Assembly: GCA_003599505.1 (NCBI GenBank)
Contig: QZKO01000014.1
Location: forward strand, 7,774 to 71,773
Origin: Nitrospiraceae bacterium
GTDB lineage: Bacteria > Nitrospirota > Thermodesulfovibrionia > UBA6902
Length of the DNA stretch: 64,000 nucleotides
Reading direction: 5' to 3'
A program made the translations under genes and the position numbers. This document shows positions 15,265-48,055 of the stretch, piece by piece (position 1 is the stretch's first letter; the number at the start of each line of letters is the position of its first letter). The notes below the pieces were generated by a model. That model was not told where the DNA came from and did no database searches. It saw only the letters and a list, made by a program, of their open reading frames with translations.

Positions 15265-15294
15265 CTCATTATTCAGAGCTACTTCTGAATCCTT

Positions 15295-16059: not shown

Positions 16060-16138
16060 TATTGTTTAATGACCTTAATTAATATGATTTGATTTGCTAT
16101 AAATTCTTTCATTGACTTTAGGCTAAAAAGGAGATACT

Positions 16139-18492: not shown

Positions 18493-18506
18493 GGAAAATT
18501 AACTCG

Positions 18507-19506: not shown

Positions 19507-20898
19507 ATGAAAGTACTTCTAATAAATCCTTTAACCCTGGAAGACAGTATGGTGAATATCACTCCCAATCTTGGCTTGGGATATCTGGCAACTTCTCTGA
19601 GAAACAACGGGTTTGAAGTGGAAATATGGGATGGTGTCAAGAAGAACATGACGAAACGGGGACTTGAAGAGAGGTTGAAGAAACGCGATTACGATGTTGC
19701 CGGTTTTCAGGTATATACCCGGAGCGTGAAGGAAACTCAAGAAGGACTTGAGAAAGTTAAGGCGCTTGATTCCAGGATCGTTACAGTAGTAGGTGGGCCG
19801 CATCCTTCAGGTGACCCGGAAGGCTCTCTGACTCATCTTAAAACTGATTACGCTTTTCGGGGAGAAGCTGAAATAGGTTTATCCCAATTGTTAAAAAAAA
19901 TTACCGGAAAGGTAAATGAACCATTTGAAAATATCAATAATTTAATCTGGAAAAGCAATGGGAAAATTATATGTAATCCGCTGCAGCCTATTGAAAATCT
20001 GGATGTGGTAGGCATTCCGGCTTGGGATATGATTAACCCTAATGACTATCCCTACGCGCCGATTGGAGCTTTTTCAAAAAAAATGCCTTTAACGAGTATT
20101 TCCACAACGCGTGGTTGTCCCTATCACTGCACTTTTTGCGCGAACAACACGATTATGGGCAGGAAGGTAAGGGCGAGAAGCACAGAAATTGTTTTGGCAG
20201 AAATGGACTTATTGTATAACAAGTATGGAGTTAGAGAATTTCAGATTATTGATGATAATTTTACATCCAAAAAAGCCCTTACTCTGGGGGTGTGCGAAGG
20301 CATTATTAACAGAGGGTGGGATATAGGCCTTTCATTTCCGAACGGGGTGAGACTAAGTACTCTTGATGAAGAAATTCTGCATCTGCTTGAAAAGGCCGGC
20401 TGCTACTCTTTGGGGCTTGGTATAGAATCAGGTTCTCCAAGGACTTTAAAGAATATGAAAAAAGCTCAGTCAGTTGATGAGATAAAAGAAAAAGTTAATC
20501 TAATCCATAATGTTACCAGGATCAGGACCACAGGCTTTTTTATCATCGGCTATCCAACAGAAGAAAAAGAAGACATTTTGCAGACGATCAACCTGTCTAA
20601 GGAACTTCCCATAGACAGGGCGCAGTTTACTATATGCCTTCCAGTTCCCGGAAGCGAAATGACAGAGCAAATGATAAAAGCCGGAAAGCTGAAAGATGTG
20701 GATTTCAGTGACATATCTTTTCAGAATATTGTCCATATACCTGAAAAGATGACATTAAAAGAACTGAGGCGATACCGGATGAAAGCGTATATGGAATTCT
20801 ACCTCAGATTCAGGATAATCTTCGGCTTATTATCAGAAATCAAATCAATTGAACATATGAAATTTATATTCCGAAGAGTAATGAAGTTGTTTTCATAG
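19507..20898 (+). CDS. B12-binding-domain radical SAM enzyme (class B), paralog 1
   Basis: The N-terminal Rossmann-like cobalamin-binding domain begins MKVLLINP. TTRGCPYHCTFC is the CX3CX2C motif. It is paralogous to 43151..44548 and 54107..55534. Confidence 0.8.
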   Translation: MKVLLINPLTLEDSMVNITPNLGLGYLATSLRNNGFEVEIWDGVKKNMTKRGLEERLKKRDYDVAGFQVYTRSVKETQEGLEKVKALDSRIVTVVGGPHPSGDPEGSLTHLKTDYAFRGEAEIGLSQLLKKITGKVNEPFENINNLIWKSNGKIICNPLQPIENLDVVGIPAWDMINPNDYPYAPIGAFSKKMPLTSISTTRGCPYHCTFCANNTIMGRKVRARSTEIVLAEMDLLYNKYGVREFQIIDDNFTSKKALTLGVCEGIINRGWDIGLSFPNGVRLSTLDEEILHLLEKAGCYSLGLGIESGSPRTLKNMKKAQSVDEIKEKVNLIHNVTRIRTTGFFIIGYPTEEKEDILQTINLSKELPIDRAQFTICLPVPGSEMTEQMIKAGKLKDVDFSDISFQNIVHIPEKMTLKELRRYRMKAYMEFYLRFRIIFGLLSEIKSIEHMKFIFRRVMKLFS

Positions 20899-22683: not shown

Positions 22684-23715
22684 TTAGGAATTATCGTAGT
22701 TTTTATACAGACTCTTGAGATTTGTTTTTACCCCCAATAATGCTCTCAACGATCCAATTCCGGGGGAAACATTTCCAATGAGTAACGATAAAAAAGTTAA
22801 AGGGACTTCTTTTATATGCTCGGAATATTTTATTGATTCGATTACGATTATCGCTGAGTAAAAAATGAGGATAGCTAAATAAAAAAAGAGAAAGGTATTA
22901 GAGAAGAAAGAGATAATTCCACCTGCAATTATAAACAACAGAAAAAACATGGGCAGAAGGAATGAAACCGTATGAAAAGAAATATGTTCCCTGAAAATGT
23001 CTTCTTTGAGCGATGCGAAAACAGTAGAGCCGTACGTGACTCTTTGAAGAAAATAAGGCTTAAATAAAGACCTGTTGTGGTGATAAACGATTACTTTATT
23101 GTTATAAAATATTTTCTTTTTATTGCTGATTATTCTCATGCAAAGCTCTATATCTTCGCCGGTGAACAGGTTTTCATTAAATCCCTTCAACTCTTCTATT
23201 GCCTGTTTATTTACAATAAGATTGCACGAAGGCAGATCGTAGCAGTATCTTGAGTGCGCTATCTTCTTCCTGAATGAATTTGCTCCGGAAACAAAAAAAG
23301 ATTTTAATGAATTCCCAACACATCTCTTATATAAGTTATCATTGGGAGGAGTTATATTTGGCCCGCCGACTGCCCAGATATCAGTGTTTTTCGTAAACGT
23401 CTTTACCGCATTTTCCAGCCAGTCCCTTGTCGGATAAGCATCAGAGTCAATAAAGGCATAAAAATTTCCGGCGGCATTATTTATGCCGATATTTCTTTTG
23501 AACGCGATATTCTTGTTCCCGGTTTCTACTGTCTTTATATTCCTGCTGATTAATTTTTCAGGTAATTCTATCTTGTTATCAGGGAGTAAAATAATCTCAA
23601 AATCGGGATAATTTAAATCAAGACAATGCAGGACACATTCATATACATAAGAATTGAATTCTACAAAAGGTATTATTATTGATACCCTGCTGTTCACCTT
23701 AAAATTTGACTGCAT
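22684..23715 (-). CDS. GT2 family glycosyltransferase with C-terminal TM helices
   Basis: VSIIIPFVEF...IILLPDN is a GT-A N-terminus. Two or three C-terminal hydrophobic helices follow. It overlaps the upstream radical SAM gene by 17 nt. Confidence 0.7.
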   Translation of the reverse strand: MQSNFKVNSRVSIIIPFVEFNSYVYECVLHCLDLNYPDFEIILLPDNKIELPEKLISRNIKTVETGNKNIAFKRNIGINNAAGNFYAFIDSDAYPTRDWLENAVKTFTKNTDIWAVGGPNITPPNDNLYKRCVGNSLKSFFVSGANSFRKKIAHSRYCYDLPSCNLIVNKQAIEELKGFNENLFTGEDIELCMRIISNKKKIFYNNKVIVYHHNRSLFKPYFLQRVTYGSTVFASLKEDIFREHISFHTVSFLLPMFFLLFIIAGGIISFFSNTFLFFYLAILIFYSAIIVIESIKYSEHIKEVPLTFLSLLIGNVSPGIGSLRALLGVKTNLKSLYKNYDNS

Positions 23716-24799
23716 TGTACAGCATAGGAATGATGAATTTGGGATTTGATATGGCGTTCACAGACCAAACACATTCGTATGTACAGGCACATTTCGTGTT
23801 TTTGATAAACTCCTTACAATCAGTTACCTGTTTATTTTGCCATAGTTTCATGAAATCCATATCATAATCCCTCAGGTTCCCAAGATTTTTATCGTTAAGT
23901 ATCTCACAAGGATAAACATCCCCATTTGCATAAATAACTCCAAAAAGAGAGGCCGCGGAACAATTTACAATAAATTTCTTTTTTATATAGGTCTCCGCAA
24001 CAATTTTACTTACCAATATATTTTTTGAATTCATGAGTCTTCCCTGAAAGTGCTTTTCAAAACCTTTTGTTACTCCGGATAATTGGTCCCTGCGCATTTC
24101 TTTTGTCAAATTAATATATGATTCTAATATCTCCGTTTTTACATCAGAATTAATTTCTCTGACAACTCCGGCCTCCCTCATTATTGTTGCCGTGCATGAA
24201 TCTATTCCAAGACTCTTCAGATATGCATAAAGTTTTAAAACGTTATGGTAGTTATGGTGTGCTATAGTTATGCAGATATTGGGCATTATGTTGACATTCT
24301 TATAAGATTTAACCAAGTGATAACTGTCAAGGACTTTTCGGAATAAACCTTCTACTCCCCTGTTCTTATCATGCTCTTCCTCAAAATTATCAATGGAGAA
24401 CTGGAAAGTCACTTTCCCTTTTATGTTAGAACTGACAAAGCTCTCCAGAAAATCATGAATTCTATCAGTGAAAAACCCGTTTGTCGTTATAAATAATGAT
24501 TGTATATTCGTAGTTGTAAAATAAGCCCTGGCGATATCAAACATATCTTTTCTGAGAAAAGGCTCTCCTCCGGTCAGGTTAACGTTGAACAGGCTTTTTC
24601 CAAATGTCTTTGTCATTCTTTCTATATCATCTAAACTTAATTCATTCTTAGAGACACTCTGATTATTGATGTCAACAAAGCAATGTTCACACCTCGCATT
24701 ACATCTATTAGTTACAAAGTGTATTACGCTGATTGGTTCTTTTTTTAAAAAAAATGAATTAAGAATCAATCCCGGCATTTTATACATTGATTTATTCAT
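23699..24799 (-). CDS. Radical SAM enzyme with SPASM domain (paralog of 8324..9331)
   Basis: TNRCNARCEHC is the CX3CX2C motif. NLTGGEPFLRKDMFDI parallels NITGGEPFIRQDITDI of 8324. The C-terminus has clustered Cys (CSAAS...CEIL...CKEFIKNTKCACTYEC). Confidence 0.75.
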   Translation of the reverse strand: MNKSMYKMPGLILNSFFLKKEPISVIHFVTNRCNARCEHCFVDINNQSVSKNELSLDDIERMTKTFGKSLFNVNLTGGEPFLRKDMFDIARAYFTTTNIQSLFITTNGFFTDRIHDFLESFVSSNIKGKVTFQFSIDNFEEEHDKNRGVEGLFRKVLDSYHLVKSYKNVNIMPNICITIAHHNYHNVLKLYAYLKSLGIDSCTATIMREAGVVREINSDVKTEILESYINLTKEMRRDQLSGVTKGFEKHFQGRLMNSKNILVSKIVAETYIKKKFIVNCSAASLFGVIYANGDVYPCEILNDKNLGNLRDYDMDFMKLWQNKQVTDCKEFIKNTKCACTYECVWSVNAISNPKFIIPMLYNAVKF

Positions 24800-24985: not shown

Positions 24986-25016
24986 AACCGGACATCATGC
25001 TTTACTCCGTCCGGTT
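24986..25016 (-). terminator. Candidate rho-independent terminator at the 3' end of the minus-strand epimerase gene
   Basis: AACCGGAC-N15-GTCCGGTT forms an 8-bp stem. On the minus strand it is followed by CCTCTTTTTCC. It spans the stop of 25002..25988. Confidence 0.35.
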
Positions 25017-25988
25017 TTCGGTTCGGCTGTATTGTCTTTCGTGAAGCACCCATTGGTATTGGCGACGTACACCGTCGACCAGGCCGATCTTCGGTGACCA
25101 CTCCAGGACATCCCGGGCGCGGCGGGTGTCGATGTTGTAATCCAGGCGCTTTTTAACTCGTTTATGATATTCAATGTCCACCGGTCGTTCGGCAACCATA
25201 CGAACGGCCTCCGCGATGTCCCGGATGCGGCAGCTGCTTCCGTTTCCGATATTAAATATGCCCCGGGCTCTTCGGAACCATGCAAGATAAACCGCCTCGG
25301 CGGCGTCTTCCGCGTAGACCAGGTTCCTTCGATCTTCTCCGTCTCCGTAAATGGACAGGGGAAGGCCTTCGGCCGCCCGATGAATAAAATTGCCGACTGC
25401 CCGCTTGAGGCGATCACCGGGACCATACACGGCCGGCAGACGAAGCGAACAGACGGGCAGGTCGTGGAGGTCCCCGTAGAGATGCAGATATTTTTCGCCG
25501 ATTAATTTGGCGGCCCCGTAAAACGTGAGAGGCAGGGTCGGATGCAACTCTGAAATGATATCGTTTTGAGGGGTCCCATAGACTTCAAAGGAACTGATAT
25601 AGACCAGAGATTGAAGCAAGGGTGCCCGTGCGAGCGCCCGCAACAGGCGAATCGAACCGTGCACATTGTGTGAAAGCAGTCGGACCGTGTCCTCGGGTTG
25701 ATTGGCAGCGGTATTATCGGGGATAAAAGCGGCCGAATGCACCCATCCCTCGATTTGGCCGAGATACGGGCCCAGGGCGTCCACGAAGTCATCGGACGTC
25801 AAGTCTGCCGGCTGAGCATATACGTTGCCGGGCCACGATACCCCGTGTATGGACGGCGCGGTAGCGGGTGAACGGGAAATACAGAGGACAGTGTGCCCGT
25901 TCCGCGTCAAGGCCTGTACGATAAACTGCCCCAGATGCCCGGAGGCCCCGGTGACGGCAATCATGATGAACCTCCCAACACATCCCAC
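25002..25988 (-). CDS. NAD-dependent epimerase/dehydratase (extended SDR), high-GC
   Basis: MIAVTGASGHLGQFIV is the Rossmann GxxGxxG motif. YGAAK supplies the YxxxK catalytic motif. Its codon usage is foreign to the flanking genes. Confidence 0.75.
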   Translation of the reverse strand: MGCVGRFIMIAVTGASGHLGQFIVQALTRNGHTVLCISRSPATAPSIHGVSWPGNVYAQPADLTSDDFVDALGPYLGQIEGWVHSAAFIPDNTAANQPEDTVRLLSHNVHGSIRLLRALARAPLLQSLVYISSFEVYGTPQNDIISELHPTLPLTFYGAAKLIGEKYLHLYGDLHDLPVCSLRLPAVYGPGDRLKRAVGNFIHRAAEGLPLSIYGDGEDRRNLVYAEDAAEAVYLAWFRRARGIFNIGNGSSCRIRDIAEAVRMVAERPVDIEYHKRVKKRLDYNIDTRRARDVLEWSPKIGLVDGVRRQYQWVLHERQYSRTENRTE

Positions 25989-26866
25989 ATCAGCTTCAAC
26001 CCGTCGGGGAAATCGGTTTTCGGGTCGAATCCGAATGCTTTTCTGGCCCGATCAATGGTATACCAGCGATCGACCCATGAGCTCTCCCGATAAAGGATTT
26101 CAGGCTGTATGGGCCGGCAGGACAGGGCGCAGACGGCGTCCGCAACGTCTTTCAGTGTATGCGGCCGGCCGGAAGAGATGTTGAAGACGCCCTCTGCGCC
26201 TTTCCGGATAACCTGCTCGATGGCTACAGCTATATCCTTGACGAAAATATCGTCTCTGATTTCAGCTCCGGTTCCATGGATGACAGGACGTTTGCCTTGT
26301 TTCACGCAATCCATAAATAGGGGAATGACATTGCGCCGGTGCTGGCCGGGTCCGTATATGAAAGCGAGCCGGAGGTTGCAGAGCTTGACGCCCCGTTTTT
26401 CACAGGCAATCCGGAGAAAATGCTCCGCGCAAAGTTTGGCCACGCCATACAGGGTGAACGGATCAGTGGGGTGCGATTCATCGACCGGGAGATTGCGGGG
26501 TCTTCCATACACCTCGATGCTGCTGATGTGAACGACGCTATCCGGCGCGTCGGGCAACCGGTCCAGGAATTCCAGCGGAGCCCGCACCATGAGGTCAATG
26601 TCCGAATGGGCAAATGAATCGGACTCCCGCTGTTGCGTGATGTGGGCCGCTAACCAGACCAGTACGTGCATAGGCCCTGCTTCCCTGATCGCCTTATCGA
26701 GATCCTGCCGGTCAAGCAGGTTTCGCTCATGGAATTGCTCGCCGTTAAAGGGACCTCCCTCGGGGGGACGCAGGTCGAACGAAACGACTTCCATGCCGCT
26801 GTCCAGCAGTTGCCGGACGACATGCCGGCCCAAAAACCCGCTGGAACCTGTAACCACCGCTTTCAT
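25961..26866 (-). CDS. NAD-dependent epimerase/dehydratase (extended SDR), high-GC
   Basis: MKAVVTGSSGFLGRHVV and YGVAK are present. Its 3' end overlaps the next gene by 28 nt. Confidence 0.75.
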   Translation of the reverse strand: MKAVVTGSSGFLGRHVVRQLLDSGMEVVSFDLRPPEGGPFNGEQFHERNLLDRQDLDKAIREAGPMHVLVWLAAHITQQRESDSFAHSDIDLMVRAPLEFLDRLPDAPDSVVHISSIEVYGRPRNLPVDESHPTDPFTLYGVAKLCAEHFLRIACEKRGVKLCNLRLAFIYGPGQHRRNVIPLFMDCVKQGKRPVIHGTGAEIRDDIFVKDIAVAIEQVIRKGAEGVFNISSGRPHTLKDVADAVCALSCRPIQPEILYRESSWVDRWYTIDRARKAFGFDPKTDFPDGLKLMWDVLGGSS

Positions 26867-27159
26867 AAAACTGCTCCGATTTTCTCCACGAGAAAATTAC
26901 CTGCCGCAAATTATCATACCACACTCAGAGTAGTATTTTTCCGGTTAGAAAGCCCGGCACCTGCGCTACATATAGCTTGACTTATCGAGCAGTGCGGGAT
27001 GCGCAACTGATTGCGTATTGTGTTAATATAAACAATGAGTTCTGCAATGCCGGCATCATTTATTTACCGTACTCATACTATTCTATTGCCTGATACCGAA
27101 ATCCAGATTTAATAATTGTTTATTTTACTGATTTATAGTGAGGGAAAAAACTATATTCA

Positions 27160-28131
27160 ATGAAAAAAGAAACAAGTAAGCTTGAAGGAAGTAACGTGCT
27201 CGTAACAGGCGGGTGTGGTTTCATAGGGTCACATTTGATAAGAAGACTAATCGACTTGCACGTCGGCAGTATTACGGTAATTGATAGTTTGAAGTATGGC
27301 GATAAAGCAAATATAGGCAAAGAGTCTGAGAATATTATAGTAATAAAATATACAATTGATAATAAAAACGATGACGTTCTTTACGAGGCTCTTCATGGAA
27401 TCGACTATTTATTCCACTTAGCTGCAGAGAAGCACAATCAATCTATCAATAACCCTACAGATGTGATAAACAGCAATATAAACGGGACGTTCAGGCTCTA
27501 TGAAGCTGCTGCCAGGAATAGAGTCAGGAAAGTGGTTTATGCATCATCTCTTTATGCCTATGGTCGTATGTCTGTTCCCGATATGAACGAATCGGAATTG
27601 CCGGCGCCGAAAACAATCTATGGAATTTCCAAATTGGCAGGGGAACTCTTCCTTGCTCACTACTTACAGAAAAATGACCTGAAATATAACGTGTTAAGAT
27701 ATTTTTTTACTTATGGCCCTAAACAATTCAGCGGGACGGGATATAAATCTGTTATCGTGAAAAATTTCGAAAGAATTTTAAGAAATGAAAACCCGATAAT
27801 ATTTGGCGATGGGAAACAGGTATTGGACTACATCTATATCGATGATGTCATAAGCGCCACCATTAAGGCAATGGAGTCGGATTGTTATGGTGAAGTATTT
27901 AACGTTGGGTCATCTATTCCCTCTTCAATAGATCAAGTTACTGACGTGATGCTCAGAGTCAGCGGAAAGTCACTTGATAAACTATATGACCCGCCTGATG
28001 AGACAAAAGATACATACAGAGTAGCCGACATTTCAAAAATCAAAAAAATATTAAACATTCAGCCCACTGTATCACTTGAAGAAGGACTGAGCAAAACATA
28101 TGAGTGGATACAACAGAGAGGGAATGTATGA
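27160..28131 (+). CDS. NAD-dependent epimerase/dehydratase (UDP-sugar 4-epimerase / UXS-like extended SDR)
   Basis: VLVTGGCGFIGSHLIRRLI and YGISK are present. It has no TDE triad, so it is unlikely to be a 4,6-dehydratase. Its codon usage is native and AT-rich. Confidence 0.8.
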   Translation: MKKETSKLEGSNVLVTGGCGFIGSHLIRRLIDLHVGSITVIDSLKYGDKANIGKESENIIVIKYTIDNKNDDVLYEALHGIDYLFHLAAEKHNQSINNPTDVINSNINGTFRLYEAAARNRVRKVVYASSLYAYGRMSVPDMNESELPAPKTIYGISKLAGELFLAHYLQKNDLKYNVLRYFFTYGPKQFSGTGYKSVIVKNFERILRNENPIIFGDGKQVLDYIYIDDVISATIKAMESDCYGEVFNVGSSIPSSIDQVTDVMLRVSGKSLDKLYDPPDETKDTYRVADISKIKKILNIQPTVSLEEGLSKTYEWIQQRGNV

Positions 28132-30305
28132 GGTATGAACTTTCTATCATTGCTCCTTGTTACAATGAGACTTTAAACATTCACGAGCTAATAGAGCGCT
28201 TACAGAATGTAATGAATAAGAAGAATATCAATGGTGAAATCATACTTGTAAATGATGGAAGTATTGATGATACGGGAGAAGTCATCGACCGGTCCTCGGC
28301 AAAATATGAGAATGTTACCGCTGTTCATCACAAAATAAATCAAGGCATTGCTGCTGCCTGGAAAACAGGCCTGTCCGTCTCGTCCGGCGAGTATGTATGT
28401 GTTATAGACGCTGACCTTCAATATCAGCCTGAAGATATATCGAGACTTTACAGGGAAATCAAGCTTACGAACATAGACGTAGCGCAGGGATACCGAAGCA
28501 ATATCGGACGTCAGATGGACTACAGATATTTTTTAAGTCGTGGCTTTAACCGTATCCTCAATCTTCTTTTTGGAATGAATCTGAAAGATAACAAATCGGG
28601 GTTTGTCTTGTGCAGGAGAGAGATTTTACAAGACATATTGCAGCATCGCTATCACTATTATTATTTTCAAAGCTTTATTGCTATCGCGGCCAAGGAAAAA
28701 GGGTATACAATTCGTGAAGTTGAAGTTTTGTTCAGAGAGAGACGTCTGGGGAAGTCTTTTATCCAAAGGTGGCCTTTAAATGTAATTATCTGCTGTATTA
28801 TCGACATAGTGAAAGCCTTCATTGAGCTGCGTGTATTTAAAAAAGATGAAGACATATTAAGAGATTTTCTTTTACACAATAAACCGGCGCATTATGAGGA
28901 AACTTTACCGGGATGGCGGAAGATCTTTTTTAAGTTTTATATTCTTTTGATGCCGCTTCATCACTGGATGATCTCGCGCGTTGCCATGCTTTATTATAAG
29001 GAATTAAAACAAAGTCAATGGTTGTCCCCGGACAAGATTAAGGAGCTGCAGGAAATAAAACTCAGAAGGCTTATTAACCAGGCCTATTATCATGTGGGGT
29101 ACTATAGGGAACTATTTGATGAACACGGATTAAAACCGTCAGACATTAACACTATTGAGGATTTACAAAAGTTGCCGTTGCTGGATAAACACAGTGTGCG
29201 AAACAATCTTTATTTTGATTTAATGTCCGATAATCATAATAAAAGAAATATTCTCAAGATAACTACGAGCGGTTCAACGGGCGAACCTTTTGTTTGCTAT
29301 GCCGACAAGCATCAACTGGAGATCAGGTGGGCGACAACCCTGAGAAGCATGGAATGGACCGGCTACCGTTTTGGAGATAAACAGGCGAGACTCTGGCATC
29401 AGACAATAGGAATGACACGGCTTCAGATCATTCGTGAGAAAATGGACGCGTTTTTCAATCGCAGACTGTTTATCCCTGCTTTTGAGATGAACAAGAAAAA
29501 CCTTAACCATTTAATCGGTAAATTGAAGATGCATGCCCCTGTTCTGATTGACGGATATGCTGAATCATTCAATTTCCTGGCCCATTATATAAAGAACATC
29601 GGCCTTGACGGAGTCCATCCCAAGGCGATTATATCATCTGCACAGGTGCTGCCGGAACATAGCAGAGAAATCATTGAAGATGAATTTAAATGCGGGGTCT
29701 TTGATAAATACGGAAGCCGGGAATTCTCCGGTATTGCTTATGAATGTAATGCGCATAACGGACATCACATTGTCGCAGAGAACTATATAGTTGAAATATT
29801 GAAAGATGGAAAAACTGCAAAACCCGGCGAAGTTGGAGAGATCATAATTACAGATTTGAATAATTACAGTATGCCTTTTATTAGATATCGTATCGGGGAC
29901 CTGGCGGTTGCGATGGACAATTCTGTTACTTGCGCCTGCGGAAGGGGATTGCCGCGAATTGGAAAGATCGAAGGTCGTGTTCAGTCTATTATTATAACGA
30001 CCAACGGAACATACATACCCAGCTCATTTTTTCTGCATTTGTTAAAGGATTATGATCATATTATAAGGCAGTTTCAAGTTGTGCAGGAAGAAGAGGGGAA
30101 GGTAACATTAAAGATTGTGAAAGGTCTAAGCTTTGCCGAAAGTGTCTTTAATGAAACCGTGTTAGGCTCTTTGCACAGGTATCTTGGCGATGACATGATT
30201 ATTAATGTGGAATTTGTCGATAAGATACAAATGGTCAGGACAGGCAAACATCAGACAAGCATATCAAAACTGAATTTTGATTACCAGAATATCAACAAGC
30301 ACTGA
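28128..30305 (+). CDS. Fusion protein: N-terminal GT2 polyprenyl-phosphate glycosyltransferase (Dpm1/ArnC-like) plus C-terminal CapK/PaaK-like adenylate-forming enzyme (phenylacetate-CoA ligase / F390-synthetase family)
   Basis: The N-terminus has LSIIAPCYNETLNIHE...ILVNDGSIDDTG...VIDADLQY (GT-A). After about 230 aa comes a hydrophobic stretch, then TTSGSTGEPFVCYADKHQLEIRW (the AMP-binding P-loop of the PaaK/CapK family) and later acyl-adenylate motifs. A single uninterrupted ORF spans both domains. I use the ATG at 28128, which overlaps the upstream stop by 4 nt. The ORF track lists a GTG at 28104. Confidence 0.6.
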   Translation: MRYELSIIAPCYNETLNIHELIERLQNVMNKKNINGEIILVNDGSIDDTGEVIDRSSAKYENVTAVHHKINQGIAAAWKTGLSVSSGEYVCVIDADLQYQPEDISRLYREIKLTNIDVAQGYRSNIGRQMDYRYFLSRGFNRILNLLFGMNLKDNKSGFVLCRREILQDILQHRYHYYYFQSFIAIAAKEKGYTIREVEVLFRERRLGKSFIQRWPLNVIICCIIDIVKAFIELRVFKKDEDILRDFLLHNKPAHYEETLPGWRKIFFKFYILLMPLHHWMISRVAMLYYKELKQSQWLSPDKIKELQEIKLRRLINQAYYHVGYYRELFDEHGLKPSDINTIEDLQKLPLLDKHSVRNNLYFDLMSDNHNKRNILKITTSGSTGEPFVCYADKHQLEIRWATTLRSMEWTGYRFGDKQARLWHQTIGMTRLQIIREKMDAFFNRRLFIPAFEMNKKNLNHLIGKLKMHAPVLIDGYAESFNFLAHYIKNIGLDGVHPKAIISSAQVLPEHSREIIEDEFKCGVFDKYGSREFSGIAYECNAHNGHHIVAENYIVEILKDGKTAKPGEVGEIIITDLNNYSMPFIRYRIGDLAVAMDNSVTCACGRGLPRIGKIEGRVQSIIITTNGTYIPSSFFLHLLKDYDHIIRQFQVVQEEEGKVTLKIVKGLSFAESVFNETVLGSLHRYLGDDMIINVEFVDKIQMVRTGKHQTSISKLNFDYQNINKH

Positions 30306-30306
30306 A

Positions 30307-32328
30307 TCATCGGCCGGTTGTATAAGTATCGCTCATATTGGGTTGATAAACAAATGGCTTGTCAGGATAATATTTCCTGAGTTCATTTGAAAGGAAGTCC
30401 ACGTCGGATTGGTTGAAGGATCCGATCCTTTCATAAAGATAAACCTTTGCTTTCTTCTTCTCAAGAGTAAGATTGAACTCGTAGGGGAGTCGTCTGTAAG
30501 AAGCGCCCATATCTTTCCCGTTTAGAATGGATTCAGCCGGAATGACGACGGTCAGTGTTTGTTCACGGCTGAAATCATGTTGTACCGGATCGGTTACAAG
30601 CACATACCGGGCTTTAAAAAGAGCATTGGGAAATCCGTCTTTCTGATCAAGTGCGCCGCTTCTGTAGATATGGTTTCCCATATACGGGGTGTCTGGAAGA
30701 GACAAATAGGCTTTTTCAATGATTTCAGAGTTTAAGAGGTCATTGCCCGCCAGAACGTACAGCCTGTCATCGGGATCAGTCAGGAGTCCTCGTATTACAC
30801 TCAGCATCCTTTTTATCTCAGGGATATCATGCCGTACAGGAGGCTCATATCTATTTATGGGAAACAGAGTTTTGGCCTGTTTTGTGTACGGAGCTGCTTC
30901 CGGGGAGAAAACAGCAGAAAAATTTAAAGACGCAATGAGAATATAAACGGAACAGATAGTGGCTCTTACAGTCCGTGATTTTACATTTAAAATAATTCCT
31001 GTTATGAACAATGAAATAAACAGGACTATGGTTGGTATTAAGATGTCATAATGGTGAGGGAAAAAACTGTGAATCCTTGTGAACAGGAAGAAAGTAAACG
31101 CCCATTGAATCAGCAGGAATGAAGCCAGTTTCCTGGTATTTCTGTAATAAAAGGATACAAATACACCTAACAAGGCCATAGCAATATAGAGAAAGCCAAA
31201 ATGCGCCAGGAATCTTTTGAAATCCTGCAAAGTAGTATCACTAAATTTATAAGCCGTTATATATGAATAATCACCGATAAATATTTTTATCAGAAAAGGT
31301 CCGGCTATCATTATGAAAAAAAATCCGGAAATGAAGATAGTAAACAATAGTTTCTTTGACAGAACAAGGAGTCTTTCGCGATCAAAACGATGCTCTATGA
31401 ATAAAAAGATATATTCATTAATGATAAGAGCAATAAAAAAGGAGGCAGCCCAGAAGATATAGTACTGACGGAAGATAACCAATACGGGAACCAATATGGC
31501 AAGGAAAACCAGGGTCCTGTATCTTTGGGCGGGAAACGGATATTTGAAATAGGAAAAGAGGATGAGACATATTATAAAAAAGCCGCCAATGCCGACATAT
31601 CCATCTAATAGAGGAACCCAGATAAAAGTGAATGAAAAGAAGGTGAAAAGAGCTACAAAGCTTGCGCTGATCGGGATGCGGTCATTATACAGCATTGCAG
31701 CGCTTCTTTTATATAAGAGGAGGAAAAATATGGCGGAAAAAAAGAGGAAGATGTTTACCATCGATAAAATAAAGGACAACCTCTGTGTACCGAATAATAG
31801 AGAAAATGGTGTCAACAGAAAGGGGGCCAATAAGTTGTAATGGTCAAACTGGATGCTGCCCAGAACAATTAGTATGGCATGTACAGGATTAGCTTTAAAT
31901 ACTGTGCTTATTCCTGCATACTTTTCAGGAAATATTGCTGAATCCCAACTGAAAATATAGTTTTGCTTCCCTACAATATGTATAGCAAATAAATTACTTG
32001 CAGTAAGAAAAAGAAGAAGCATTATAAGATCATATTTTGAAACCGAGGGGCGGTTTGCAAGGTCTCCTTTTCGTTCGAGCATATACTCATTATCATTGAA
32101 TTTCTTTTTGAAATAATTGATTAGCCCCGGGAATAAAAGCAAAGTCAGGCCTGTAATAATAAGGACGAAACCATTTCTTATGAAAAATAACTCCGTATAA
32201 CCGAGCCCCTTGCTTCCTATGCCCAACAAATCAGGTACAAAAGAAAGAAAGATAAAAAATAATCCCAGAACCGGCAGCGCCAATGAATACTTTTTTTGAG
32301 ATACCGGCTTATTATTTTTAGATAACAT
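30307..32328 (-). CDS. Large polytopic membrane protein with C-terminal periplasmic domain (function unknown; possible GT-C-like transferase/polymerase)
   Basis: It has about 12 or more hydrophobic helices followed by a soluble tail of about 200 aa. It is the last gene of the long minus-strand operon. Confidence 0.4.
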   Translation of the reverse strand: MLSKNNKPVSQKKYSLALPVLGLFFIFLSFVPDLLGIGSKGLGYTELFFIRNGFVLIITGLTLLLFPGLINYFKKKFNDNEYMLERKGDLANRPSVSKYDLIMLLLFLTASNLFAIHIVGKQNYIFSWDSAIFPEKYAGISTVFKANPVHAILIVLGSIQFDHYNLLAPFLLTPFSLLFGTQRLSFILSMVNIFLFFSAIFFLLLYKRSAAMLYNDRIPISASFVALFTFFSFTFIWVPLLDGYVGIGGFFIICLILFSYFKYPFPAQRYRTLVFLAILVPVLVIFRQYYIFWAASFFIALIINEYIFLFIEHRFDRERLLVLSKKLLFTIFISGFFFIMIAGPFLIKIFIGDYSYITAYKFSDTTLQDFKRFLAHFGFLYIAMALLGVFVSFYYRNTRKLASFLLIQWAFTFFLFTRIHSFFPHHYDILIPTIVLFISLFITGIILNVKSRTVRATICSVYILIASLNFSAVFSPEAAPYTKQAKTLFPINRYEPPVRHDIPEIKRMLSVIRGLLTDPDDRLYVLAGNDLLNSEIIEKAYLSLPDTPYMGNHIYRSGALDQKDGFPNALFKARYVLVTDPVQHDFSREQTLTVVIPAESILNGKDMGASYRRLPYEFNLTLEKKKAKVYLYERIGSFNQSDVDFLSNELRKYYPDKPFVYQPNMSDTYTTGR

Positions 32329-32475
32329 ATATCCTATATTAGAAACGGCCGTTCAACTTAGTCATACAAAATATTAAGGGAATAAGAAGACATTTATTTT
32401 AAGAAAAACATAATATAACATTATCAATATAACCGAACAAGTCGCAAGTTGCTATTTGAGTTGCAACCACTTAAT

Positions 32476-33717
32476 TTAATTCGCTGATGGATAACACTTT
32501 TTAAAACAGAACAATCGGCGCAAATCGTTCTTAAACCACTCAGGAAGCGATGAAAAAAATAGATAAAGCAAGCCGACTAAAATAATCCAGTTAGAAAACT
32601 CTTCCATAGCGAATGTTATTTTTCTTCCCAGGAAGCGCATTACAACGTTACTCCAGAGTGAAAACATTATTGCTGAAAAAGTAATGCGAGGAACTAATGA
32701 ATCGCCTTTATCGCAATCACGCATCCATACTACTAACTGGGGTATAGCAAAAACTAAAAACACCAGTCTGTAATCAACAGTATTCATCAGCAGGAAACAG
32801 CCTATATAAATTCCCGCTCCAATTCTGAAGGCATCAACATATTGCGGTTGTCTGCACAGTCCGGAGCCTGCTCTACGCATGCTGAAATATAAAGCTGCAG
32901 CCACCGATATAAAGGCCAAGATATAGGAAAGTATCTTAAAGAACAGCACTTGGCTGTCAGACAGAGGGAGATGATAGAAACGCCCGTGTCTCAGCGCCAT
33001 CCACCATACATCTCTTCCAAATGAACTGCTGACGCCTTTGGGCGCCGTCTTGAAGAGCTGTATAAAATCAGTAATCGATAATAACGCATAGAGAACGAAG
33101 ATACCTGATCCCGTTAGAAAAAGAAACCAGAATTTCCTTTTATGTTCTTTCAGAAGATATGGAATTCCAAAAATCGGATACAGTTTAAGTATCGCGGCGA
33201 ATAAGAAGATCAGCAGTGCCGAAATACTCGAGTAAGAATTTATGACCAGCGCGAGGGATAATATGAAAAATATTATTAACTCTATGTTCGATCTTTCCAC
33301 CCCGAGCATTACAGGAGGGGAGAGAATAACAAAAAACAGGATAAGGTACGTGAAATTATCAAAATTTCCGGAGAACCAGAAGATGCCGATACCGATGAGA
33401 AATAAGATTATTACGATGCTCCCCAATATATTTGTATGGCTCTCATTAATTCCCAGGGAGAAAAGGGCGTGCCATATTCTCGGATAATTAAGCAGTGTGC
33501 CTCTGGGATTGACAGTATTTTTGTAGATTTGATCATGTCCTTGAGCATGTGATTCCGACGCCCATGCGAACTGACGTGAATCGAAAAAGCCGGGAGGGTC
33601 CAGGGGGAGCTGCCACTTTCTTATCAAGAAATCATTATGAAGAGATACGAATGAAAATATCGATGCCGTTATTATCAGTATGATGGCGACAAACAGTATT
33701 AATTTCAATCTGGTCAT
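32476..33717 (-). CDS. Polytopic membrane protein (possible GT-C / DUF2029-like mannosyltransferase-type)
   Basis: It has about 10 TM helices. The first periplasmic loop is rich in aromatic and acidic residues. Confidence 0.35.
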   Translation of the reverse strand: MTRLKLILFVAIILIITASIFSFVSLHNDFLIRKWQLPLDPPGFFDSRQFAWASESHAQGHDQIYKNTVNPRGTLLNYPRIWHALFSLGINESHTNILGSIVIILFLIGIGIFWFSGNFDNFTYLILFFVILSPPVMLGVERSNIELIIFFILSLALVINSYSSISALLIFLFAAILKLYPIFGIPYLLKEHKRKFWFLFLTGSGIFVLYALLSITDFIQLFKTAPKGVSSSFGRDVWWMALRHGRFYHLPLSDSQVLFFKILSYILAFISVAAALYFSMRRAGSGLCRQPQYVDAFRIGAGIYIGCFLLMNTVDYRLVFLVFAIPQLVVWMRDCDKGDSLVPRITFSAIMFSLWSNVVMRFLGRKITFAMEEFSNWIILVGLLYLFFSSLPEWFKNDLRRLFCFKKCYPSAN

Positions 33718-33748
33718 ATGATTGGAAATAGAATGTTTTTAAAATATG

Positions 33749-35287
33749 TTATCCCTGTCTTGCTTTCATCCATATTTCGTATATTCCATATGTTTTCTTT
33801 AATTCATAATTGCTGCCGATGTAATTATCAAGCAAATTAACATTCGAATCAATTTTGCTCAGATTGGGCTCATATCGATCCCGCACAGCCAGTACGACCA
33901 AAGGGGTATCGTTATTTCTTAATTCATTAATCATTTCGCTTTGCGCTTCAACGGTAGTGGTTACGCCTGCATCCAACTCATGATATTTTGTCGCGCAATT
34001 CCTCTCCGCAAGAAAGTAAATAACCGGATCGTTAAAACGAAATTGATCATGGTTTTTGACACCAACATATATATATTCATTTTCTAAGGTATTGTTTTTA
34101 ATAAAGGTGACTGTTTCTTTTAAGTTTGAATCTATAATCAAATATCTGATTCTATCCATGTCAGCGTTTACAGTACTCACGATATAACCTTTTGTGCGTT
34201 TTAAAATCAGCTCGATAGTGCTGATCGGTCTGATAAATGCGACGCTAAAAACGATAATGAACATCACATAAACACCTCTTTTCTGCCATGTGTTGAGTGA
34301 TAACGTTTCAGGCAATGAGCACAGTAAAATTGAAGCAGACACAATTCCCGTCAGGGCAACGGGAAGCAAATGTGGTATATCTGATCGAACACTGACCTGA
34401 AACATGAAAAGCAAACCGATGAGGGAGATAAGCAGTCCTCCATAGGCCACCATATGATCAGTTTTGCGTTTCATCAGGACCAAAGAAATGATGACGCTGA
34501 TCAAAAGCACAACCGGGAATAAATAAAAGGAGAACGCATATATTGACAAGGAAGGATAAGGGAGTTGCGCATATTCAGTCAGGACATTAAGAGGCATAAG
34601 GATCATATCATTGATTATAAATTTTAAAGCGGAATTCAGAAAGAAATAAATAATTACGGGTAATGCCGATATCATTCCGATCACTATAAAAGAAATGAAC
34701 GGGGTCCATGATTTTCGCACCCCGGTTATTCTCATGACAAACAGGACAACAGCCATAGCTATAGCAGCGTATCCTCCCAAATCATGTCTAAATAGAATAG
34801 CCAGGACAATGGCCACAGCGCTTAACGCGACATAATAAATTGTATTGTGTTTCATATGTAACAAGAGAAAATACACACTGATATATATAAAAAGAACAGA
34901 TGGATATACCGGATACCCCGGATAACTGCTATGTCCCATCCAGACAAGAGACATCGTCCATCCGACAAATGCCAATTTATTTGATGCCAATAACCTTATG
35001 ATCAAAAAAATAAAAAGAGATAGAAGAGCTCTTACTGCAATATCATATATCCTTTCAGTGGTAACGGACGTCCCGAATATATTAAAAAGCGCTGCTATTG
35101 TGTAATATTGCCCGGGTGGATATGCACTGCTGAAATCTTTATATGGGATTTGCCCTTTCAGGACTCTTTCTGCTCCAAAAAGGATTAGCCCTTCATCATA
35201 AGGGCCCAGACCTATATTGAGTATTGGAAGATAATATATCGCGGCGACAATAAAGATGAGGATCAATAATAGAATATTTTTTTTCAT
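33749..35287 (-). CDS. GT-C-like polytopic membrane glycosyltransferase
   Basis: The N-terminal TM helix is followed by GLGPYDEGLILFGAERVLKG (the DE loop motif). It has more than 11 TM helices. I use the ATG at 35287 (MKKNILLL), giving a 1-nt spacer to the upstream stop, rather than the longer 35332 start. Confidence 0.45.
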   Translation of the reverse strand: MKKNILLLILIFIVAAIYYLPILNIGLGPYDEGLILFGAERVLKGQIPYKDFSSAYPPGQYYTIAALFNIFGTSVTTERIYDIAVRALLSLFIFLIIRLLASNKLAFVGWTMSLVWMGHSSYPGYPVYPSVLFIYISVYFLLLHMKHNTIYYVALSAVAIVLAILFRHDLGGYAAIAMAVVLFVMRITGVRKSWTPFISFIVIGMISALPVIIYFFLNSALKFIINDMILMPLNVLTEYAQLPYPSLSIYAFSFYLFPVVLLISVIISLVLMKRKTDHMVAYGGLLISLIGLLFMFQVSVRSDIPHLLPVALTGIVSASILLCSLPETLSLNTWQKRGVYVMFIIVFSVAFIRPISTIELILKRTKGYIVSTVNADMDRIRYLIIDSNLKETVTFIKNNTLENEYIYVGVKNHDQFRFNDPVIYFLAERNCATKYHELDAGVTTTVEAQSEMINELRNNDTPLVVLAVRDRYEPNLSKIDSNVNLLDNYIGSNYELKKTYGIYEIWMKARQG

Positions 35288-35288
35288 A

Positions 35289-36038
35289 TCAGCTATTTTC
35301 TTTTCTTGCCACACAAAAAACTGAGAGACCAAAAGGGAGCTTTACCCCTGACATTATAAGTTTGTTTTCAAGGAATAAAAGATGCGTAAATATTTTATTG
35401 AACAGGCAGCCGGATTGATTAAGGTCGGAATCACTGTCGTCCTTGTTCACAAAAATAAATTTGTCAACCATTCTCTTAATTGCGGCTATGGGGAAAAGCA
35501 GTGTATTTCGATATGTGATTATCTCTATTCTAAACCCGGCTTTTTCCAGGTCGCTTTTCAATCCTTCTATTGTATACCTTCGCCTTGTATGAATCGCTAC
35601 ATCATGCTTGCTTTTTAAAAAATTATAAGCGGGTACGTTTAACAGTAATATTCCATTTGGACTGATAACTTCATGGAGTTCTTTCAATGTATTTACGTCA
35701 TTTTTCACGCCCATGTGATAAATAACATCTAAAGAAACTACAATATTAAATAAATTATTTTTAAGGGGAACTTCGCATATTGAACCCCTGATCAGGTTAT
35801 TTATATTTCTCAATTTGCAAAAGTTAATTGCAACTTCCGAAAAATCCAGACCAAAAGCCCGGTACGCTTTACACTCATCAAGAAATTTGCCTGTACCGCA
35901 ACCCGCATCCAATATTCTCATGCCATCATGTTTATGACTAAACTTATCAATAGAAGAAAAGACCAGGTCCCTTAATCCAACATACCACCAGTAGTTATCT
36001 TCTATGTTAAATATAACTTCATATACTTTCTTTTCCAT
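35289..36038 (-). CDS. Class I SAM-dependent methyltransferase (size and architecture compatible with sugar N-methyltransferases of the TylM1/DesVI type)
   Basis: MRILDAGCGTGKFLDE is motif I. An acidic residue ends beta2 (GLDFSE). The protein is about 250 aa. Confidence 0.7.
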   Translation of the reverse strand: MEKKVYEVIFNIEDNYWWYVGLRDLVFSSIDKFSHKHDGMRILDAGCGTGKFLDECKAYRAFGLDFSEVAINFCKLRNINNLIRGSICEVPLKNNLFNIVVSLDVIYHMGVKNDVNTLKELHEVISPNGILLLNVPAYNFLKSKHDVAIHTRRRYTIEGLKSDLEKAGFRIEIITYRNTLLFPIAAIKRMVDKFIFVNKDDSDSDLNQSGCLFNKIFTHLLFLENKLIMSGVKLPFGLSVFCVARKENS

Positions 36039-36190
36039 TGAGCACTATGATCTTATCAGACAATGATTCTATAGATACATTGATTTTTGCTTAATCATAT
36101 AAGCATGACGGTAGAAAACGAATTGACGATGTCAACGGTTGTTTATATTTAAACCATTATTTTTAGTATCACTCATTGTCTCTATAGAAA

Positions 36191-37300
36191 TCAATTAATA
36201 TTTGCAATGATATCATGTAACGCTTTAACAGTTATTTGTTGTTCGTCATCGGAAAGGGAAGGATACATAGGTAGAGAAAAGATCTCTTTAGCAGCATCCT
36301 CCGTATGAGGTAAATCACCCTCTTTGTAACCTAAAAACTGATAACCTGTCATGGCATGAATGGGCCATGGATAACTGATATTAACGAAAATGTCTCTGTT
36401 TTTCAGTCCCTCAATAATCTGATCTCTACGGGGGTGCCGGCAAACGTATAAATAATATACATGCTTATTGCCCTGCTTTGTTTTCGGTAAGGTAAGTTTC
36501 GCGTTTAATAACATGTGATCATATTTTTGTGCAAGAAGTCTTCTGCGCTTTATATATTCTTCAATATGTTGCAGCTTACTTAAAAGAATCGCCGCATGAA
36601 GCTCATCGAGTCTTGAATTGTAACCGTGCTCTACTGAATAATATGTCTTCTCCATGCCGTAAAAACGAAGCCGGAGCAGTTTCTTGTACAGCTTTTCACT
36701 ATTTGTTAAAACCATACCACCGTCTCCATACCCGCCGAGGATCTTGGTTGGGTAAAAAGAGAAGGCTGAAACGTCTGACATAGAGCCGGCCTTATTGCCG
36801 TTAAAGATCGCTCCATGACTCTGGGCGCAGTCTTCAAGGACCTTGAGACCATAAGCATCAGCTACCCGTTTGACGTCGTCCATATTTACGCATTGGCCGT
36901 AGAGGTGAACCGGAAGGATACACTTTGTCTTCTTCGTAACTGCTTTCTCCAGCAAAGAGGTGTCCATAAGGTAAGTTTCCGGGTCTATGTCGACAAATCT
37001 TGGAACTGCGCCGGTTGAAACAATAGCCGATACCGTCGGGACAGCGGTATTGGACACGGTTATTACCTCATCTCCAGGACCTATACCTAATCCCTTCAGA
37101 CCGAGGAATATAGCATCCGTCCCGCTATTGACACCTACTCCGAATTTTACTCCGCAATATTCAGCAAATGTTTCCTCAAATTTCTTTACGTTCTCTCCGA
37201 GTATCAGGCATCCCGACCTCAAGACCTTTTCTATCGAGGCATGAATCTCCTCTTTTTCCTGTTCATATTCTTTCAAGTAGCTCCAAATTTTTATAGACAT
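36191..37300 (-). CDS. DegT/DnrJ/EryC1/StrS-family PLP-dependent sugar aminotransferase
   Basis: GVNSGTDAIFLGLK and SAFSFYPTKILGGYGDGGMV (PLP Lys) are present. Confidence 0.85.
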   Translation of the reverse strand: MSIKIWSYLKEYEQEKEEIHASIEKVLRSGCLILGENVKKFEETFAEYCGVKFGVGVNSGTDAIFLGLKGLGIGPGDEVITVSNTAVPTVSAIVSTGAVPRFVDIDPETYLMDTSLLEKAVTKKTKCILPVHLYGQCVNMDDVKRVADAYGLKVLEDCAQSHGAIFNGNKAGSMSDVSAFSFYPTKILGGYGDGGMVLTNSEKLYKKLLRLRFYGMEKTYYSVEHGYNSRLDELHAAILLSKLQHIEEYIKRRRLLAQKYDHMLLNAKLTLPKTKQGNKHVYYLYVCRHPRRDQIIEGLKNRDIFVNISYPWPIHAMTGYQFLGYKEGDLPHTEDAAKEIFSLPMYPSLSDDEQQITVKALHDIIANIN

Positions 37301-48046: not shown

Positions 48047-48055
48047 CGGCGGTTT

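Follow-up and report, generated by a model that had tools for sequence, protein, structure and literature searches.

A glycosyltransferase-CapK fusion protein, widespread in bacteria, as a candidate enzyme of lipid-carrier sugar modification

Introduction

GT-C glycosyltransferases use polyprenyl-(di)phosphate-linked donors, which are the product type of GT2 enzymes of the DPMS/GtrB/ArnC type. The Arn system (ArnA/B/C/D/T) and the Rhizobium RgtE/RgtA-D/LpsL system follow this logic, with a short-chain dehydrogenase/reductase (SDR) that acts on a nucleotide sugar, a GT2 enzyme that loads the sugar onto polyprenyl phosphate and a GT-C enzyme that transfers it in the periplasm; in the Arn case the sugar is loaded in a transiently N-acylated (formylated) form. 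Here we analyse a gene with comparable surroundings in a stretch of 64,000 nucleotides from a Nitrospiraceae bacterium (contig QZKO01000014.1, positions 7,774 to 71,773; this whole stretch is called the window below). Its product of 725 amino acids (aa) joins an N-terminal GT2 domain to a C-terminal CapK-family domain, i.e. a PaaK-like member of the ANL superfamily of adenylate-forming enzymes. Compared with Arn, the locus has no formyltransferase or deformylase; instead, the presumed modifying enzyme would be ATP-dependent and is covalently fused to the GT2 domain.

The N-terminal half resembles GtrB (Synechocystis sll0501), ArnC and DPMS/Dpm1 in its GT-A fold, its DXD motif and its arginine pair, and in having GT-C partners as in the Gtr, Arn and PMT systems, but the fusion carries ~430 additional residues of an adenylating enzyme. 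It also differs from GtrB and ArnC in that the two helices at the position of their membrane hairpin are weakly hydrophobic and no GtrA- or ArnE/F-like flippase gene is adjacent, and its score against the ArnC equivalog model (78.4 bits) is far below the cut-off of 529. The C-terminal half shares the two-subdomain ANL fold and the P-loop, A5, A7, A8, A10 and C-x-C-G-R motifs with PaaK and PaaK-like ligases (BT_0428, NatL2, AjiA1, ClxA, HCL), but is only 22-25% identical to them, misses the PaaK cut-offs about five-fold and has R-L-W-H-Q in place of the aryl loop; moreover, its gene lies in a glycan locus and not in a catabolic or natural-product cluster. Coenzyme F390 synthetase (FtsA) belongs to the same superfamily (TIGR03335, E 3e-19; 69.1 against a cut-off of 458.7), whereas the fusion comes from a Nitrospiraceae bacterium and a glycan-assembly context. 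Standalone CapK proteins (PF27533, ~450 aa) of capsule and exopolysaccharide (EPS) loci are 33-43% identical over the whole domain and have glycosyltransferase (GT) and SDR neighbours, but there the domain is unfused and H424 and Q425 are not conserved. Membership in this family supplies no reaction.

Results

The fusion gene and the gene upstream of it are located as follows:

28128..30305, forward strand: GT2-CapK fusion open reading frame (ORF), 725 aa, identical to GenBank RJQ56211.1
27160..28131, forward strand: GalE-like extended SDR (NDP-sugar 4-epimerase type; PF01370; NDP, nucleoside diphosphate), first gene of a two-gene operon

Translation of 28128-30305 on the forward strand yields 725 codons with zero internal stops, in agreement with the single uninterrupted ORF of the original prediction. 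The start is the ATG at 28128, with which the N-termini of the homologues concur (consensus MxYELSVIAPCYNE). The SDR stop codon TGA shares the sequence ATGA with this start codon at 28128-28131, and the overlap and operon link that had been described for the two genes are thereby borne out. A scan for promoters and terminators performed no better than on shuffled controls. BLASTP finds the window protein, at 100% identity, in GenBank as RJQ56211.1, annotated only "MAG: glycosyltransferase [Nitrospiraceae bacterium]" (MAG, metagenome-assembled genome).

Searching a space of 5.8 billion proteins, we found more than 120 full-length homologues with 59-91% identity and 96-100% coverage (nearly all 99-100%), nearly all of them 720-780 aa long; PF00535 and PF27533 are present together on all 120 homologues listed. 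At least 430 relatives were found in metagenomes by a metagenome scan. The gene forms one tblastn high-scoring segment pair (HSP) in 94 of 94 non-redundant related loci, the linker alignment is almost free of insertions and deletions (105 columns for 101 query residues) and the mean column identity is 65-68% in the two halves as well as in the linker. At least nine phylum-level groups contain the fusion: named protein sources include Nitrospiraceae, Endomicrobiales, Patescibacteria, Thermodesulfobacteriota, Myxococcota and Terracidiphilus, to which genome contigs add Rokubacteria, Polyangia, Polarisedimenticolia, Gemmatimonadota, a 'delta proteobacterium' and a truncated Planctomycetaceae copy. 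Taken together, the number of homologues, the single HSPs, the conservation of the linker and the invariant residues described below show that the fusion is genuine and under selection. The fusion had been called unusual, which is overstated, since hundreds of proteins from metagenomes and MAGs of many phyla have this architecture and it is already deposited.

One related contig (JGI 3300059473, P0127) has the order SDR - GT2 (243 aa) - CapK (477 aa, 52% identical) - SDR - two methyltransferases, in which the GT2 and CapK genes overlap by 4 nt; either the gene is truly split here or that assembly contains a frameshift.

The first half of the protein is the following domain:

28128..28763, forward strand: GT-A (GT2) catalytic domain of the DPMS/ArnC/GtrB type, residues 1-212 (PF00535; PDB alignments)

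Pfam GT2 (PF00535) matches residues 6-170 with E 4.9e-30, and the NCBIfam ArnC model (NF007986) covers residues 5-211 with E 5e-22 at the sub-cut-off score given above. In a PDB sequence search with residues 4-212 the best solved relatives are all polyprenyl-phosphate glycosyltransferases (PI-GTs), namely DPMS (5mlz), ArnC (9hwj/9bhc/8vxh) and GtrB (5ekp/9nye), and Foldseek retrieves ArnC, GtrB and DPMS for this half at E 1e-16 to 1e-14. The ArnC and GtrB Foldseek alignments span 280-298 columns, i.e. they run through the linker helices beyond the GT-A core. For residue conservation we used 107 unique full-length sequences that are 50-87% identical to the query, and in 107 of 107 D43, D94, D96, R123, D154 and R205 are invariant. 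D94-A-D96 aligns with the DAD of GtrB, ArnC and DPMS, so that the metal-binding DXD motif is present. HMMER aligns R123 with GtrB R122, R205 with the arginine of the R-x-x-G-x-S motif of DPMS and ArnC, and D154 with an aspartate in DPMS (KD) and ArnC (GD), with the catalytic D157 of GtrB falling 4 residues away. The GtrB alignment ends at residue 187; R205 is probably the counterpart of GtrB R200. For GtrB, R122 and R200 are described as essential and as universally conserved among lipid-phosphate GTs, the equivalents in human DPM1 being R147 and R234 (PMC4728340). Two arginines expected to bind the acceptor phosphate (R123 and R205) are thus invariant in the fusion family. With DPMS, ArnC and GtrB as the only best solved relatives and with this arginine pair, the GT2 domain is of the PI-GT type by its motifs, and transfer to polyprenyl phosphate is its predicted activity, for which the adjacent GT-C enzymes give indirect support.

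The two catalytic domains are connected by the following segment:

28764..29015, forward strand: helical linker, residues 213-296 (helices 217-236, 243-250, 263-278 and 286-296 in the secondary structure of the AlphaFold2 model)

The AlphaFold2 model, built with a 35-sequence alignment, has a predicted local distance difference test score (pLDDT) of 86.3 and a predicted template modelling score (pTM) of 0.85; no PDB match among those listed by Foldseek spans both halves. The linker occupies the place of the transmembrane (TM) hairpin of ArnC and GtrB and is amphipathic throughout the family, with D226, E233, R264, H278 and W280 invariant. The linker had been described as hydrophobic: this applies to one helix of the window protein (219-237), the only one to pass the Kyte-Doolittle TM threshold, but not to the family, in which the linker is weakly hydrophobic and carries invariant charges. 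From the weak hydropathy, the invariant charges and the single TM-like helix of the window protein we infer that the family is monotopic or interfacial in the membrane, with both catalytic domains cytoplasmic, a placement also demanded by the ATP-dependent domain.

The second half of the protein comprises:

29016..30302, forward strand: CapK-family (PaaK-like, ANL superfamily) adenylate-forming domain, residues 297-725 (NCBIfam, PDB and Foldseek matches; PF27533 on homologues)
29262..29288, forward strand: P-loop/A3 motif TTSGSTGEP, residues 379-387 (T380, S381, G382, S383 and P387 invariant in 107/107)
30246..30248, forward strand: codon of K707, the putative A10 catalytic lysine in the motif TGK (G706-K707 invariant in 107/107)

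NCBIfam models match residues ~276-685, with DVU_1553 at E 7e-43, PaaK at E 8e-36 (TIGR02155) to 5e-39 and F390 synthetase at the E-value already mentioned. Their scores remain far below the cut-offs (e.g. PaaK TIGR02155, 123.4 against 646.3; PaaK NF041878, 134.1 against 700). The local Pfam search gave only a sub-threshold AMP-binding match for this half, and PF27533 ('CapK_C') is found by precomputed annotation on homologues; among these is the representative of the 90% cluster to which the identical protein belongs. Residues 295-692 match BT_0428 (4r1l, E 2e-33), PaaK1/2 and 2y27 in the PDB sequence search. Foldseek retrieves BT_0428, PaaK1/2, HCL, NatL2, AjiA1 and ClxA at E 1e-27 to 1e-17; the two-subdomain PaaK fold is seen in the matches to BT_0428 and PaaK1/2 (E 1e-27 to 1e-24, target-normalised TM-score 0.62-0.66, ~430 columns). 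The P-loop quoted in the original prediction is present as TTSGSTGEPFVCYADKHQLEIRW (residues 379-401), and PaaK-like models match this half in hidden Markov model (HMM) searches (NCBIfam DVU_1553 and PaaK TIGR02155). The proposed identities of both domains are correct, and their fusion is genuine.

The motifs of the ligase half are TSGSTGEP (380-387), YGSRE (528-532), TD (575-576), RYRIGD (586-591) and GK (706-707), which we take to be ANL A3, A5, A7, A8 and A10. The P-loop, G529, E532, T575, D576, R586, D591, R606, G706 and K707 are invariant in 107/107 sequences, and Y528, R588 and C604 are conserved in 106/107. K707 is likely the A10 lysine, judging from its position and from what is known of the ANL family. 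As the catalytic motifs of both halves are invariant or nearly so, a pseudo-enzyme is unlikely for either half. The PaaK aryl-pocket loop SYGYG(L/M)FTGG is replaced by RLWHQTIGM, in which R421-x-W423-H424-Q425 is polar and invariant, and this replacement suggests that, in place of an aryl acid, the ligase would take a polar substrate such as an amino acid, a sugar or its phosphate.

To place the domain in its family, we searched 1.84 billion cluster representatives with residues 290-725 using HMMER and obtained 25,080 matches at E<=1e-3 and 4,956 at E<=1e-30. The first ~25 are fusions of ~700-750 aa, followed by hundreds of standalone CapK proteins of ~450 aa (33-43% identical, E 1e-75 to 1e-105); both forms have TSGSTG, REFS.IA.EC, ITDL, FIRY.IGDL, C.CGRGLP and GK. 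Other representatives are GT2-CapK proteins at 36-41% identity, GNAT-CapK, CapK-GT4, CapK-aspartate decarboxylase and tandem CapK-CapK proteins; such other fusions (with aspartate 1-decarboxylase, GNAT, GT4 or a tandem CapK) are carried by proteins P0273, P0211, P0187 and P0140/P0155 and by loci L102-L104. The CapK-aspartate decarboxylase fusion adjoins a second PanD gene and a polysaccharide deacetylase gene, and one standalone CapK gene lies beside GT4 and SDR genes. As 'Rosetta stone' fusions, these architectures tie CapK to glycosyl transfer and once to a beta-alanine-forming enzyme, which hints that CapK members may join sugars to an amino acid or to an amine, beta-alanine being an example.

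An OPT-family oligopeptide transporter gene is found one to two genes from the fusion in three unrelated loci (L019, 12845-15103; L021, 7877-9691; L090, 12274-14304), and the CapK-PanD fusion (L102) also has an OPT gene in its vicinity; the transporter may supply a peptide or amino acid, or its presence may be a coincidence.

The product of the SDR gene upstream of the fusion (27160-28131) matches Pfam Epimerase (PF01370) with E 4.8e-49. Its best PDB relatives are 4-epimerases, i.e. 4zrm (E 4e-52), 6dnt, the UDP-glucuronic acid (UDP-GlcA) 4-epimerase 6zl6 (E 4e-39) and 6wjb, which act on hexoses, N-acetylhexosamines (HexNAc) and GlcA; the residues around the catalytic Ser/Tyr/Lys, compared with 6zl6 and 4zrm, are non-diagnostic for the substrate. 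Of the label 'UXS/GalE-like', the second part therefore holds, but not the first, the closest relatives being 4-epimerases and not UXS decarboxylases. In 41 of the 70 loci with enough flank, the gene that directly precedes the fusion in the same orientation is an ortholog of this SDR (>=38% identity), and some extended SDR lies within 3 kb of the fusion in 41 of 56 loci. The conserved position of the ortholog supports a coupling of SDR and fusion in what would be a lipid-carrier sugar pathway.

Two further SDR genes lie upstream of this operon:

25002..26866, reverse strand: two overlapping extended-SDR genes, 25002-25988 and 25961-26866 (Pfam Epimerase), divergent from the operon

Both are held by a GC island (25000-26950) of 55-60% GC in a window of ~38% GC. 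The syntenic locus L018 (78-83% nucleotide identity on either side) is without the two genes and has transposase fragments and a B12 radical-SAM gene (SAM, S-adenosylmethionine) instead. Homologues of the two island SDRs occur within ~1.4 kb downstream of the fusion in L007, L080/L082, L089, L093, L096 and L099. From its base composition, its absence from L018 and the position of its homologues elsewhere, the island looks like a horizontally acquired, functionally linked cassette, possibly for an alternative or additional supply of sugar nucleotides.

Downstream, the fusion is followed by three genes for polytopic membrane proteins:

30307..32328, reverse strand: 673-aa GT-C-fold glycosyltransferase with ~13 TM segments, convergent, its stop codon one base from that of the fusion
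32476..33717, reverse strand: GT87-like polytopic membrane protein, probable GT-C (Pfam GT87 26.2 bits against a cut-off of 25; nine hydrophobic segments)
33749..35332, reverse strand: PMT_2/ArnT-like polytopic membrane protein, probable GT-C (Pfam PMT_2 25.5 bits against a cut-off of 26.1, hence borderline; ten hydrophobic segments)

A Nitrospiraceae bacterium MAG contains the 673-aa protein at 100% identity as 'hypothetical protein C4526_02145'. A GT-C gene near the PI-GT-type gene, as in three-component (PI-GT / flippase / GT-C) systems, is hence found in the window. PMT_2 neighbours are also found in Acidobacteriota and Myxococcota loci, and PMT_2, YfhO or DUF6077 proteins elsewhere. The Acidobacteriota loci have the order PMT_2 - SDR - fusion - SDR, in Myxococcota locus L019 an SDR - fusion - PMT_2 module stands alone, surrounded by unrelated genes, and in the Endomicrobiales locus a 643-aa membrane protein, to which Pfam gives no match, comes after the fusion. 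In 33 of 40 loci a gene within 3 kb of the fusion encodes a protein of >=400 aa and >=8 TM segments, a co-occurrence that is suggestive only, as these neighbours are heterogeneous and no background rate was computed.

The window as a whole is a large glycan-assembly region with an exosortase, a Wzy_C protein, many GT2 and GT4 genes, deoxy-amino-sugar genes, radical-SAM, MBOAT/AlgX and Acyl_transf_3 genes. It contains a separate ArnB/ArnC/ArnT-like trio without CapK on the reverse strand (13723-17248), consisting of a DegT aminotransferase (16139-17248), a 254-aa GT2 (15295-16059) and a PMT_2 GT-C (13723-15264). Exosortase EpsH with DUF3485/EpsI and the Wzy_C protein (O-antigen ligase/polymerase type) are encoded at 17842-19319 and 3167-4558, and the window thus carries an EPS system of the PEP-CTERM/exosortase type. 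O-acylation machinery is located 16-24 kb from the fusion (an MBOAT and AlgX-like SGNH pair and an Acyl_transf_3 gene, 46616-49222 and 53031-54104), and a 674-aa protein with alpha-L-arabinofuranosidase-like domains is encoded among GT genes at 4533-6557 on the forward strand. Three B12-binding and two SPASM radical-SAM enzymes are found among the GTs (8324-9331, 19507-20898, 23699-24799, 43151-44548 and 54107-55534), and six B12 radical-SAM genes surround the fusion in the Endomicrobiales locus L014, which suggests radical modification of the glycan, e.g. C-methylation. A class-I SAM methyltransferase gene lies directly downstream of the fusion in several relatives (L018, 12288-13097; L017, 10277-12735; L079, L091 and L095), the one with 87% identity among them. 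In the window it is missing from this position; the nearest copy (35289-36038) is a weak match to the DVU_1556 methyltransferase family, and DVU_1553, the best match of the C-terminal half, belongs by its name to the same Desulfovibrio vulgaris gene neighbourhood as DVU_1556.

Discussion

Our data are compatible with the view that the fusion is a genuine bifunctional, membrane-associated enzyme that loads a lipid-carrier sugar and then, or also, decorates it for the cell surface, a reading to which we give about an even chance. The upstream GalE-like SDR would supply a 4-epimerised NDP-sugar, the GT2 domain would move that sugar onto polyprenyl phosphate at the cytoplasmic face of the membrane, and the CapK domain would spend ATP to form an acyl-adenylate and couple an acid or an amine to the same monosaccharide as an ester or amide. 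This decoration might immediately precede transfer, with the nucleotide sugar as substrate, or immediately follow it, with the lipid-linked sugar as substrate. The decorated polyprenyl-phosphate sugar would then be flipped and serve as donor for the neighbouring GT-C transferases, which would modify an envelope glycan, lipid or protein. More specifically, CapK may act at the membrane interface on the polyprenyl-phosphate-linked monosaccharide made by GT2, with ATP-dependent addition of an amino acid, another acid or an amine and installation of the product by GT-C; this version we put forward only tentatively. The general idea of the original prediction, an adenylating domain that acts on the sugar of the GT2 domain, fits the adjacency of GT2 and CapK in the split arrangement and the fusions of CapK to GT4, GNAT and aspartate decarboxylase, but its example of uronic-acid amidation on the lipid is without direct support.

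Several observations weigh against a lipid-loading and ligating enzyme. The linker helices 217-236 and 262-281 have mean Kyte-Doolittle values of 1.16 and 0.12 over 39 homologues and, unlike those of GtrB and ArnC, they are not convincingly TM across the family, i.e. a TM hairpin of the GtrB/ArnC kind is not found. The scores fall well short of every NCBIfam equivalog cut-off, and substrate specificity is therefore not transferable from any named family. The searchable literature holds no biochemical datum for any CapK-family member and no characterisation of this architecture. No GtrA/ArnEF-type flippase gene is present in 30305-37300, where all ORFs are assigned and no intergenic room is left, nor in the annotated neighbourhoods of relatives, and no amine- or acid-donor gene is conserved beside the fusion. 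Clustering and iterative HMM searches show that the large membrane neighbours are not orthologous to each other: ten of them, sampled with Pfam, comprise 2 PMT_2, 2 YfhO-like and 1 DUF6077 protein, 2 without a match and 3 unrelated or spurious ones (OPT, CLC, SecY). Some neighbours are transporters without relation to the fusion (OPT, CLC) or artefacts of ORF calling. Finally, Pfam finds no UDP-glucose dehydrogenase in the 64-kb window.

Among the alternatives, the GT2 half might be a conventional glycan-extending GT2 and the CapK half might decorate that glycan, the protein being peripheral and not integral to the membrane. The low hydropathy of the two linker helices just described would suit this explanation, as would the many ordinary GT2 and GT4 genes around the fusion and the fusion of CapK to GT4, which is not a PI-GT. 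However, the closest solved structures are exclusively PI-GTs, R123 and R205, which correspond to lipid-phosphate-binding arginines, are invariant, Foldseek aligns the protein to ArnC and GtrB over ~280-298 columns past the GT-A core, and the adjacent GT-C enzymes need polyprenyl-phosphate-sugar donors. Some PI-GTs, e.g. human DPM1, are also without TM helices. On balance we regard a conventional GT2 as unlikely.

A second possibility, which we judge improbable to a similar degree, retains the carrier lipid and assumes a uronic acid as the sugar, e.g. galacturonic acid (GalA) obtained from UDP-GlcA by the epimerase, with CapK adenylating the C-6 carboxylate on the carrier lipid and an amine completing a uronamide. 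Such an order of epimerase, PI-GT and GT-C resembles the Rhizobium LpsL/RgtE/RgtA-D GalA system. The SDR is 4-epimerase-like with the UDP-GlcA 4-epimerase 6zl6 among its best matches, and the pocket with the invariant Arg, His, Trp and Gln would be suitable for a sugar or a phosphate. Yet the top matches of the SDR are hexose and HexNAc epimerases (4zrm, 6dnt), no amine-supplying gene is conserved nearby, and UDP-glucose dehydrogenase is missing not only from the Pfam annotation of the window but also, by its motif GG.C[FLI].KD, from the 1.23 Mb of 105 related loci in a scan that had no positive control. With this dehydrogenase not found nearby, uronic-acid amidation has no specific support.

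That the CapK half is an ordinary acyl-coenzyme A (CoA) ligase feeding a separate acyltransferase, fused only for co-expression or co-localisation, seems to us more doubtful still. The best named families are indeed CoA ligases (DVU_1553, PaaK, FlxY), the JGI annotation reads 'phenylacetate-CoA ligase', and MBOAT, AlgX-like and Acyl_transf_3 genes are also present in the window; but the scores are far under every equivalog cut-off (147 against 300; 123 against 646), the acyl-pocket loop of PaaK is replaced, no acyltransferase is conserved beside the fusion in other loci, and PaaK-like enzymes that make esters or amides independently of CoA are known (NatL2, AjiA1 and ClxA among the structural matches). 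We consider it very improbable that the CapK half is a non-catalytic structural, oligomerisation or ATP-sensing module that replaces the TM hairpin of GtrB and ArnC. Such a role would agree with the degenerate hairpin and with the pTM of 0.85, which suggests fixed inter-domain packing; against it, the P-loop, A5, the A7 Asp, A8 and the A10 Lys are kept in at least 106 of 107 sequences over 50-87% identity, which is unexpected for a pseudo-enzyme. A sequencing frameshift or chimeric assembly, for which one might invoke the separate halves with their 4-nt overlap in P0127 and the 2-kb GC island directly upstream, is refuted by the comparative data, namely the identical 725-aa protein in GenBank, the homologues with a continuous frame in 94/94 independent loci from many studies, the linker kept almost without indels, and an operon of ~38% GC, like the window outside the island, that is syntenic with L018.

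A domain fusion within a glycan locus is in itself unsurprising, and as the gene is deposited and the domain pair catalogued already, the novelty of a bifunctional loading and ligating enzyme would lie in its function. If CapK does act at the membrane interface on the lipid-linked sugar, this would represent a previously undescribed route of surface-glycan modification, with a logic comparable to the addition of 4-amino-4-deoxy-L-arabinose (Ara4N) or to D-alanylation, and the first reaction for the large CapK family. Polyprenyl-phosphate sugar donors and GT-C enzymes underlie changes in lipid A, teichoic acid, O-antigen and protein glycosylation, which alter charge, phage receptors and resistance to antimicrobial peptides; with a conserved enzyme in which the lipid loading of a sugar is coupled to ATP-dependent ligation, this scheme would gain a new chemical step. 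A concrete panel of substrates is suggested by the fusion together with its split form and the fusions of CapK to GT4, GNAT and PanD, and a function would annotate the CapK family, whose ~5,000 representative clusters at E<=1e-30 are misleadingly labelled 'phenylacetate-CoA ligase' or 'glycosyltransferase'.

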